DNA of 64,000 bases, from the NCBI GenBank assembly GCA_002684915.1, contig NYWG01000162.1:11324-75323 (forward strand), read 5' to 3'. This stretch comes from Verrucomicrobiales bacterium. Its GTDB lineage: Bacteria; Verrucomicrobiota; Verrucomicrobiia; Limisphaerales; UBA1096. Of this stretch, positions 4,116 through 4,757 are shown one piece after another (positions within the stretch are counted from its first letter, which is position 1; each line of letters opens with the position of its first letter). The notes under the pieces are model-generated. The model was not told the origin of the DNA, ran no database searches, and worked only from the letters and a program-made list of their open reading frames with translations. The position numbers were made by a program, and so were the translations under genes.

Positions 4116-4757
4116 TTATTTCCACCATGGATTTAGACCCGTGCGAAAATCTGTCTCCGTCCACTGTGAGAACGTTAAAACACCGTTAGTGTCGGTAATA
4201 TGCGCCAGCGCTAGAGACAAGGGCGCGGGGCCGCGCACAACTTTGCCACTTTCGTCGTATTGCGACCCGTGACACGGACACATGAACTTGTTTGCAGATT
4301 TGTTCCACGGGACTACGCATCCGAGGTGGGTACACACGGCATTTATGCCGTAGTCACGTATTTTTTTGTCTTCGTCTACAACAAGATAAGTAGCATCGCC
4401 TTTAAGACCTTGTACCAATTCTCTTGAACCGCTTGCGTGCGTACTAAGCCAACTTTCATACGTAATTGTATCCCCTGATTTTGTCAAGGCTGGGATTCCC
4501 GCTTCCGATTTTCCGCTGGTCCGGGGAATAAAGAATAGAACGTAAGGGATTGCAAGGCCGCCGACGCTTGGAACGAGGCCACCAAACACTAAAATGAGGT
4601 TCATTATATTTCTTCTTTCCATGTCAGGAACAAACGCAGAACCCATATTGTTTTTTGCTTTGAACGAGTTTTTATTGGCAGGAGTAAACATAAGCGCGTT
4701 TGCCGTAAAGATTGCGAGCATACTAATCCGTAGACATTTTAATGCCAAACCAATCAT
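4116..4757 (-). CDS. petC: cytochrome b6f complex Rieske iron-sulfur subunit (PetC) with N-terminal leader
   Basis: Contains both 2Fe-2S boxes ([11 protein letters not shown] and CPCHGSQYD), [14 protein letters not shown], the C-terminal [11 protein letters not shown], and the PetC-type TM region [18 protein letters not shown]. About 37 additional N-terminal residues precede this core. Confidence 0.95.

Follow-up and report, generated by a model that had tools for sequence, protein, structure and literature searches.

Pelagophyte-type petC in an uncultured large DNA virus encodes a cytochrome b6f Rieske precursor with a putative complex-plastid leader

The window analysed here is a 64,000-nt stretch (positions 11,324 to 75,323, forward strand) of contig NYWG01000162.1, filed under assembly GCA_002684915.1 of a Verrucomicrobiales bacterium. 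It carries petC, the gene for the Rieske iron-sulfur subunit (PetC) of the cytochrome b6f complex, at 4116-4757 on the minus strand within an array of viral genes. The gene is of pelagophyte ancestry and under purifying selection, and its product begins with topogenic features of a plastid precursor. It is probable that the virus encodes in this way a functional, pelagophyte-derived precursor of the plastid Rieske subunit, which would be expressed, imported, and assembled into the host complex, and would benefit the virus by sustaining electron flow during infection.

Identity of the petC Product

The open reading frame (ORF) of petC and the segments of its product are listed from the start codon on; AF2 is the AlphaFold2 model of the protein.

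4116..4757, minus strand: petC, 213 aa, ATG start, TAA stop at 4116-4118 (ORF list and translation)
4695..4757, minus strand: signal-peptide-like segment, residues 1-21, with basic K7 and R10, a hydrophobic core, and A-x-A before the predicted cleavage (heuristic; AF2)
4632..4694, minus strand: transit-peptide-like segment, residues 22-42, with 3 K, 0 D/E, and 3 S/T, predicted disordered (composition; AF2)
4524..4631, minus strand: mature N-terminus (VPDMERRN...FFIP) with the twin arginine R48-R49, then the PetC transmembrane anchor, residues 43-78 (PF25471; AF2)
4491..4523, minus strand: hinge between anchor and head, residues 79-89 (4 of 11 residues identical to the cellular homologue P0002)
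4317..4334, minus strand: cluster-binding box I, C142-T-H144-L-G-C147 (translation; columns invariant in a 36-sequence alignment)
4263..4280, minus strand: cluster-binding box II, C160-P-C162-H163-G-S165 (translation; columns invariant in the same alignment)

The ORF cannot extend further 5′, because an in-frame TAA sits eight codons before the ATG. An earlier note, made by a model from the letters of the stretch, had read it as a full-length b6f PetC with a leader of 37 residues. The leader and all motifs quoted there are present in the translation, and Pfam, NCBIfam, PDB, and Foldseek agree on b6f PetC as opposed to a bc1 or oxygenase Rieske protein. The TM_PetC family (Pfam PF25471) was matched with 50.9 bits (cut-off 37.1) over residues 41-88, and the Rieske domain (Pfam PF00355) with 39.9 bits (cut-off 20.3). 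The b6f iron-sulfur subfamily model PRK13474 of NCBIfam gave 240 bits (cut-off 154). The threshold of the cyanobacterial equivalog model NF045928 (Cytb6fFeSPetC) was missed, with 230.5 bits vs. 250; NCBIfam models are curated to name bacterial and archaeal proteins. Among PDB chains, the b6f iron-sulfur proteins of Mastigocladus, Nostoc, Synechocystis, spinach, and Chlamydomonas were matched over query residues 40-212 with E values of 1e-61 to 7e-64. The top match was 2e74_D (E 6.7e-64, query 40-212 vs. target 7-178), whereas bc1 Rieske chains reached about 1e-11 over the cluster loop only.

The cluster ligands C142, H144, C160, and H163 are invariant in the 36-sequence alignment, as are the disulfide pair C147/C162 and the GPAPLSL loop. 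The AF2 model has a mean predicted local distance difference test (pLDDT) score of 80, with values above 90 in the head domain. When it was compared by Foldseek, all of the top 15 matches were b6f iron-sulfur proteins, and bc1 Rieske proteins followed with E about 1e-6 and about 20% identity. By profiles and predicted fold, the product of 4116-4757 is confirmed as the full-length precursor of the cytochrome b6f Rieske subunit. It is predicted to bind the 2Fe-2S cluster and to assemble with cytochrome b6, subunit IV, and cytochrome f.

Viral Context of the Gene

The window has a G+C content of 41.5% and is densely coding on both strands, with 57 ORFs of at least 150 aa and no tRNAs. The following features place petC in its surroundings.

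2483..3325, minus strand: mRNA cap guanine-N7 methyltransferase (PF03291, E 1.1e-20)
3357..4112, plus strand: convergent 251-aa ORF, function not assigned, ending 3 nt from the petC stop (ORF list)
5008..5310, plus strand: 100-aa GTG-start deaminase-like ORF between petC and the helicase gene (PF00383, 7.5e-05, below cut-off)
5639..9088, plus strand: 1149-aa protein with a D5-type helicase domain (DUF5906, 3.5e-08)
18797..19780, minus strand: mRNA capping enzyme catalytic domain (PF01331, E 1.4e-14)

A C-terminal domain of Rpb5, a deoxynucleoside kinase, a thioredoxin, an HNH endonuclease, RING/U-box proteins, several glycosyltransferases, and many ORFs without family were also found in the window. 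Tightly packed, intron-free genes that serve transcription and capping in the cytoplasm as well as replication are the content of a large DNA virus of eukaryotes, and by this content the virus most likely belongs to Nucleocytoviricota. The earlier note had placed petC in a viral gene array, 3 nt from a convergent gene and between a cap methyltransferase and a D5-type helicase. This arrangement holds, with one ORF intervening on each side of petC, hallmark genes elsewhere in the window, and the same synteny in eight independent assemblies. The ORF at 3357-4112 is the single one separating petC from the cap methyltransferase, and it keeps its position in the contigs L001 and L003-L005. It has a low-complexity tail with a DSDSDSDSDSGSDS run. 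On the other side, the match at 5008-5310 corresponds to the zinc-binding C-terminal part of a dCMP/cytidine deaminase, and this may be a truncated or mis-started gene.

It was considered that mis-assembly or mis-binning had attached a host petC to viral DNA, or that the stretch is an endogenous viral element in an algal chromosome. The window is metagenomic, support was seen at the level of contigs and not of reads, and a PetC record in the database, MAD25072.1 (in the cluster of P0001), is labelled as belonging to a Verrucomicrobiales metagenome-assembled genome (MAG), so that binning errors do occur around this contig. On the other hand, positions 1-12000 of the window align colinearly, at 99.7-99.96% identity, to eight contigs that various assemblers produced from separate samples (Tara scaffolds, SPAdes, MEGAHIT, and Logan unitig assemblies), three of which cross both petC junctions. 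At least 20 contigs, the longest of 104 kb, encode the exact PetC protein of the window, and the same kind of virus-like gene content is seen on contigs that reach 104-180 kb. Moreover, G+C content at third codon positions (GC3) is 46% in this petC vs. 87-90% in cellular genes, and the gene lacks the intron-like fragmentation of the cellular loci. Because the same junctions recur in independent assemblies, in a comparison at contig level, a chimera of petC and virus is not credible, and the whole explanation is left with hardly any probability. The contig of MAD25072.1 almost certainly comes from a giant virus and was placed in a bacterial MAG by mis-binning.

Placement of the virus in a family was tried by means of the D5-like protein and the capping enzyme, and was given up. 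Relatives of the D5-like protein (5639-9088) beyond its own cluster were not found, and the seven relatives of the capping enzyme are all metagenomic, with no isolate among them. The contigs of these relatives bear the capping enzyme, a patatin, a cap methyltransferase, DUF7197, and ORFs of more than 8,900 aa, with no capsid or polymerase gene. Since capsid and polymerase genes were not found and these two proteins have only metagenomic relatives, the virus is treated as an uncultured lineage without family placement. Giant ORFs are a feature of the clade: in the window the gene at 57335-63811 (minus strand) encodes 2158 aa with a Gly-rich domain, and in the relative L037 positions 1-9348 encode a product of 8,969 aa. 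No record was found for the 2158-aa end gene.

Ancestry, Composition, and Selection

The best cellular matches of the window PetC come from the pelagophytes Aureoumbra and Chrysophaeum and from a transcript of MMETSP1165, together with environmental proteins 78-82% identical; the nearest cellular copies are 80-82% identical. Two of these homologues, P0007 and P0013, lie on contigs of 64-65% G+C and adjoin fragmented, intron-containing genes for magnesium chelatase H (ChlH) and ferrochelatase, from which they were taken to be nuclear algal genes. In a neighbour-joining (NJ) tree (numpy, 171 columns, 1000 bootstraps) the window protein falls into a clade of pelagophyte and viral sequences with 87% bootstrap support, and it pairs with the PetC of contig L021 at 78%. 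The signature motifs of the lineage agree with the pelagophyte placement. L021 represents a related virus that has five other genes in common with the window, at 37-52% identity. By tree and motifs, petC was captured from the nuclear petC of a pelagophyte-type alga.

In L021, petC is located at 10001-10612, and its divergent neighbour at 8673-9881 (minus strand) encodes a 402-aa protein that begins with a Rieske domain (PF00355, 5.4e-23) and is oxygenase-like in the remainder. This neighbour has no counterpart beside the window petC.

The earlier note had also found petC GC-richer than its surroundings by eye and consistent with acquisition from a host. The excess is slight: petC has 46.3% G+C vs. 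an ORF mean of 41.4% (z = 1.16, rank 9 of 52), and its GC3 of 45.8% vs. 43.2% is no outlier (z = 0.44). A G+C anomaly as the sign of a recent transfer was discarded on these values. Cellular petC homologues have 68-70% G+C and a GC3 of 87-90%, and the difference from the viral GC3 means that enough time has passed since the transfer for the composition of the gene to be fully ameliorated. Host origin follows from the phylogeny and not from composition, and the higher overall G+C essentially reflects the Gly/Ala/Pro-rich core of the protein and not a scar of transfer.

In the mature core, the ratio of nonsynonymous to synonymous substitution (dN/dS) between the window and L021 is 0.056 at a dS of about 1.5, which is near saturation. 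This ratio indicates strong purifying selection on petC within viruses. The gene might instead be a neutral, decaying passenger, a captured host gene without a role; many cell-derived genes of giant viruses have no demonstrated role, and nothing more specific speaks for it. Apart from the low dN/dS, such decay is at odds with the intact ligand and structural residues, with an ORF that stays open in at least six viral lineages, and with petC DNA that is identical across many samples. A passenger is therefore regarded as extremely improbable. As far as sequences can tell, petC is nested in a host clade, resident in viruses, and under purifying selection, as an auxiliary metabolic gene would be.

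Leader and Plastid Targeting

The signal-peptide-like segment reaches its Kyte-Doolittle maximum over eight residues, 2.23, at residue 11. A home-made heuristic gave FTANA|LMFTP as the sole (-3,-1)-compatible site with F, W, Y, or L at +1. In the AF2 model a helix covers residues 2-24, and pLDDT falls below 50 at residues 35-39. Few of the 50 other ORFs of the window have an N-terminus like that of PetC. The transit-peptide part of a complex-plastid presequence has a net positive charge and few acidic residues (Gruber et al. 2015, PMC4329603), and residues 22-42 carry the charges published for it (PMC4329603). The segment aligned to these residues in cellular pelagophyte-like precursors is FVAPSVQAPRLAPAKALVEEGAF.

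PetC precursors of cellular red-lineage algae have a signal peptide ending in ASA|F, a segment of about 22 residues, and then FVPDMERRN, while in the green alga Chlamydomonas the hydrophobic N-terminal segment of PetC is absent. All 13 viral PetCs examined have a hydrophobic N-terminal segment and a small-x-small site of the form (A/G/S)|F or |L; the viral leaders are otherwise unalignable with host leaders. Evolution has been much faster in the leader (dN/dS 0.37) than in the core (0.056). The earlier note had seen in the first 37 or so residues a signal-peptide-type leader suited to import into a complex plastid. A bipartite layout led by a signal-peptide-like segment is supported by the heuristic, whereas the strict ASAFAP motif with phenylalanine at +1 is not present (TANA|LMF). 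The layout supports a leader acting like the bipartite presequence of a complex plastid, and it would fit import across four membranes followed by thylakoid insertion of the twin-arginine translocation (Tat) type.

Another possibility is that the protein acts outside the thylakoid b6f complex, either in a respiratory, bc1-type context or as an Fe-S protein that is secreted or stays in the endoplasmic reticulum (ER). The petC gene of Prymnesium kappa virus (PkV) RF01 lies among oxidative-phosphorylation genes, a place that its authors, in the published passages on this gene, call puzzling while pointing out the similarity of b6f and bc1 proteins; the L and not F after the predicted cleavage of the window protein also allows such a role. 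It is countered by the PetC-specific anchor family, matched above its cut-off, by the 80-82% identity to plastid PetC precursors vs. about 20% to bc1 Rieske proteins, and by a leader that resembles a signal peptide and not a mitochondrial presequence, with the RR Tat-type anchor kept. Respiratory genes were not found nearby when the ORFs of the window were scanned. A role outside the b6f complex is accordingly considered very unlikely.

Transmembrane Anchor and Hinge

In the AF2 model one helix spans residues 44-76. E47-R48-R49-N50 stand directly before the part at 51-76, and R49 is invariant in the 36-sequence alignment. Twin arginine followed by a transmembrane helix is the layout of the uncleaved Tat substrate in Rieske proteins of plants and cyanobacteria. 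Compared with P0002, 33 of 37 residues are identical in the anchor and 103 of 123 in the head domain. The hinge is the divergent part: the cellular Gly-run RGGGGGSGGLP is mostly substituted in the window protein, and it is eroded in several independent viral lineages as well.

This contrast between a hinge with 4 of 11 identical residues and a conserved anchor and head, together with the repeated erosion of the Gly-run, would be expected if the imported viral PetC re-tuned the b6f complex through a stiffer or different hinge that alters how the head domain moves, with effects on photosynthetic control, on the balance of cyclic and linear flow, or on reactive oxygen species. The loss of glycine can be explained without selection, because GGN codons are GC-rich and would be lost by drift to the AT-rich composition of the virus. 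The catalytic residues and the GPAPLSL loop are unchanged, and the length and composition of the b6f hinge tolerate change. Re-tuning is judged unlikely, and a plain functional Rieske precursor is preferred.

Proposed Role during Infection

According to the preferred reading, a functional plastid Rieske precursor, petC would be transcribed from the viral genome during infection. The signal-peptide-like segment would take the precursor into the lumen of the ER or chloroplast-ER, and the basic, acid-free transit-peptide-like segment would pass it across the inner plastid membranes into the stroma. There the presequence would be cut off and the 2Fe-2S cluster inserted. The kept RR motif and transmembrane helix would then direct insertion into the thylakoid by the Tat route, and viral PetC would join the plastid-encoded PetA, PetB, and PetD in the b6f complex. 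The viral copy could keep or raise plastoquinol oxidation, and hence ATP from linear and cyclic flow, after host nuclear expression collapses. This sequence of steps is based on signals in the protein and on established knowledge of red-lineage plastid import and of Rieske insertion by Tat.

Photosynthetic electron transport is limited in rate at the b6f complex, whose cytochrome f, cytochrome b6, and subunit IV are plastid-encoded in most algae. PetC is nuclear-encoded in the algae concerned here, as seen from the bipartite leaders of its cellular homologues and from the nuclear genes around them. In tobacco and Setaria, the b6f complex as a whole becomes more abundant when nothing but the Rieske protein is overexpressed. 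With PetC encoded in the nucleus and its supply limiting the complex in plants, a viral copy would therefore sustain plastoquinol-oxidising capacity. Infection of the pelagophyte Aureococcus by a giant virus quickly down-regulates nuclear genes for light harvesting and photosystems. Replacement or boosting of the host subunit, in parallel to psbA of cyanophages, appears the most economical reading.

Several points weigh against it. Expression, import, and localisation are predicted from sequence. The major capsid protein, family-B DNA polymerase, and A32 ATPase were not found among the window ORFs or in flanks of about 10 kb on related contigs, and the virus is without cultured relatives and was assigned to neither a host nor a family. 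The NJ tree has 171 columns and weak internal support, and the dS between the window and L021 is close to saturation. Internal methionines M13, M23, and M38 could yield shorter products, and public gene callers chose M13 and M23. The hinge is without most of its glycines, so its mechanics could differ from those of the host subunit. Finally, the predicted site TANA|LMF has L at +1 and F at +3, and F at +1 has been called crucial for plastid import (PMC4329603). In the sister virus L021 (ALA|F) and in other viral lineages (TNA|F) there is F at +1. Reportedly, L, W, and Y can replace F in diatoms. By the heuristic used, L at +1 is the weakest link of the targeting reading.

Pelagophytes are abundant picophytoplankton of the open ocean. 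If the virus supplies the Rieske subunit, an infected alga could continue to make ATP once the expression of host genes has ceased, which bears on how much carbon infected pelagophyte cells still fix. Through their conserved layout, the viral presequences amount to a natural experiment on what a protein minimally requires to enter plastids with four membranes, and such presequences could point to the hosts of uncultured giant viruses from sequence alone.

Other Viral petC Genes

The gene was found in at least five other giant-virus lineages. In one, represented by L009, petC lies 2 kb from the major capsid gene of a nucleocytoplasmic large DNA virus. In a third petC virus, L015, petC (10001-10666) directly adjoins an aconitase gene (7214-9799, minus strand), and genes for a SNF2 helicase, a metacaspase, HSP90, and a full D5 primase-helicase are near it. 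The algal transcript P0134 from MMETSP is a cluster mate of the L015 PetC at 90% identity and suggests a relatively close host source.

A scan of IMG/VR gave petC on eleven giant-virus contigs (L025-L035), most of them giant-virus MAGs of Schulz 2020. Their genes are full-length like that of the window, with a hydrophobic leader and intact Fe-S boxes. PetC of L025, L026, L027, L028, and L029 is likewise of the pelagophyte type and is 67-78% identical to the window protein; none of the eleven contigs is from the lineage of the window, the best match being 78%. A mention of viral petC was not found in the text of Schulz 2020 or in those of its supplements that were searched.

L030/L031/L033 and L032/L034/L035 branch elsewhere in the NJ tree and were counted as separate acquisitions. 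A single acquisition for all viral petC genes of the pelagophyte type received 0.1% NJ bootstrap and was not retained; internal support there is weak. The signatures FM..DET and YM..DQT of the viral groups are each common to different cellular groups, and they likewise speak against a single acquisition. Because the three viral groups of the pelagophyte type are not monophyletic and two further groups fall outside pelagophytes, capture of petC by giant viruses looks repeated. A wider proposal is that petC was captured recurrently and independently, in at least 4-6 acquisitions from pelagophytes and other algae, and that a complete three-stage address was kept while its sequence was rewritten, carrying a redox subunit across five membranes into the host thylakoid. 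This is put forward tentatively, its chance being rated a little below even. If it is true, recurrent petC would be the eukaryotic-virus counterpart of cyanophage psbA, and the leaders would mark host range (complex vs. primary plastid) and tie the unplaced virus clade to pelagophyte hosts.

The earlier note knew of no petC described in large DNA viruses of eukaryotes. This has to be corrected, as ORF896 of PkV RF01, co-PelV_354, and the eleven IMG/VR contigs precede the present case. The finding is incremental in that viral petC has been reported (PkV RF01), listed (co-PelV), and is present, seemingly undiscussed, in published giant-virus MAGs. Its value is in clean evidence of long-term maintenance and in targeting signals that make import directly testable. 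In the literature searched, neither a paper with petC or Rieske proteins of giant viruses as its topic nor one combining 'giant virus' and 'ASAFind' was found. The recurrence of capture, the pelagophyte source, and the systematic retention of the complete targeting layout appear to be undescribed.

Upstream Region and Other Genes of the Window

The remaining features of the window are as follows.

4758..5007, minus strand: AT-rich intergenic region 5′ of petC, presumed promoter, with one TTTGAAAT copy 124 nt before the ATG
1483-1908, plus strand: lysine-rich 141-aa ORF with an SRSRSRS... tail
10584-11564, minus strand: short-chain dehydrogenase, FabG/FabL-like
36821-37939, minus strand: protein with a nitronate monooxygenase or FabK-like enoyl-ACP reductase domain (PF03060, 1.2e-16)
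44780-46789, minus strand: DegP/HtrA-type serine protease, 669 aa, with PDZ domains (Trypsin_2 3e-25; TIGR02037 2.9e-44, below cut-off)
48904-49815, minus strand: UbiA-family prenyltransferase (PF01040, 1.1e-24)

The octamer TTTGAAAT(T) occurs within 100 nt upstream of 6 of 40 ORFs, where about 0.5-0.7 were expected. Its sites include 1928, 46864, and 37747 on the plus strand and 17187, 23096, 34344, 50938, 52954, and 4881 on the minus strand, usually 11-93 nt before the ATG, and it is a candidate promoter element of the virus. The copy at -124 of petC is outside this range, and the octamer was not used as evidence for a petC promoter.

The N-terminus of the short-chain dehydrogenase, MLLQILIIQLATWRTCTG|FQT, resembles a signal peptide, and F follows its small-x-small site. 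A homologue with 54% identity is encoded by L009 at 18708-19622 (plus strand), about 8 kb from its petC, and starts with MKTSFIMNLFFLFKVSRA|FAL; L009 represents an unrelated, capsid-bearing petC virus. By its N-terminus, the dehydrogenase may be a second viral enzyme directed to the ER or plastid and travelling with petC. The UbiA-family protein has the hydrophobic N-terminus MKMIILLQLVVSWTAIA|L, and a link to plastoquinone, tocopherol, or chlorophyll prenylation would be a guess. No leader is evident in the DegP/HtrA-type protease; Deg proteases act on thylakoid proteins in plants. The nitronate monooxygenase/FabK-like protein and the dehydrogenase are hints of viral genes for lipid metabolism. 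Assignment of these four proteins to NCBIfam subfamilies was dropped, all scores being below the cut-offs.

Comparison with Known Systems

The closest cellular counterparts are the nuclear PetC proteins of pelagophytes (Aureoumbra lagunensis, Chrysophaeum taylorii, and P0002/P0007/P0013), with 75-82% identity to the window protein over the mature part. They have the motifs ALTK, NKAANK-type, and RTGLNPWW in common with it, and the same three-part layout of signal peptide, transit peptide, and RR-transmembrane anchor. Unlike it, they have the canonical ATASA|F site and a Gly-run hinge, and their leaders have nearly no sequence in common with the viral one.

Among viruses, ORF896 of PkV RF01 was described as a cytochrome b6-f iron-sulfur subunit, 59% identical to that of Chrysochromulina. 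As far as the published passages on it go, PkV RF01 resembles the window in that a giant virus has taken a b6f Rieske gene from its host lineage, algae whose complex plastid is of the red lineage. PkV RF01 has been cultured and is a mimivirid of a haptophyte; these passages place ORF896 together with SDH, cytochrome c, and UbiB in an island of 8 kb and contain no analysis of targeting signals. Judged by that description, the window petC differs in being pelagophyte-derived, in standing among transcription and replication genes, and in belonging to an uncultured lineage. The genome of co-PelV, a member of Mesomimiviridae from a dinoflagellate culture, also has a b6f component, co-PelV_354, annotated as 'cytochrome b6-f complex', and light-harvesting genes as well (PMC12338748). 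In the passages on it, co-PelV_354 is listed by name only, with no account of its subunit, origin, or targeting, and the family and host of co-PelV differ from those of the window virus (PMC12338748).

Cyanophages follow the same logic with psbA/psbD, petE, petF, PTOX, and photosystem I cassettes, each being a host-derived component of the photosynthetic chain in a virus, presumably there to maintain the energy supply while the cell is infected. Their hosts are prokaryotic, no organelle targeting is needed, and the subunits differ from PetC; to our knowledge, petC is not a typical cyanophage gene. Giant viruses have repeatedly acquired other nuclear-type plastid genes, those for light-harvesting (chlorophyll a/b-binding) proteins, PetM, Psa, and Psb, and a 2025 survey added PetM and several subunits of photosystems I and II to their repertoire. 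The petC gene resembles these in its nuclear type and repeated acquisition, but they encode antenna proteins or small peripheral subunits, whereas PetC is a redox-active core subunit.

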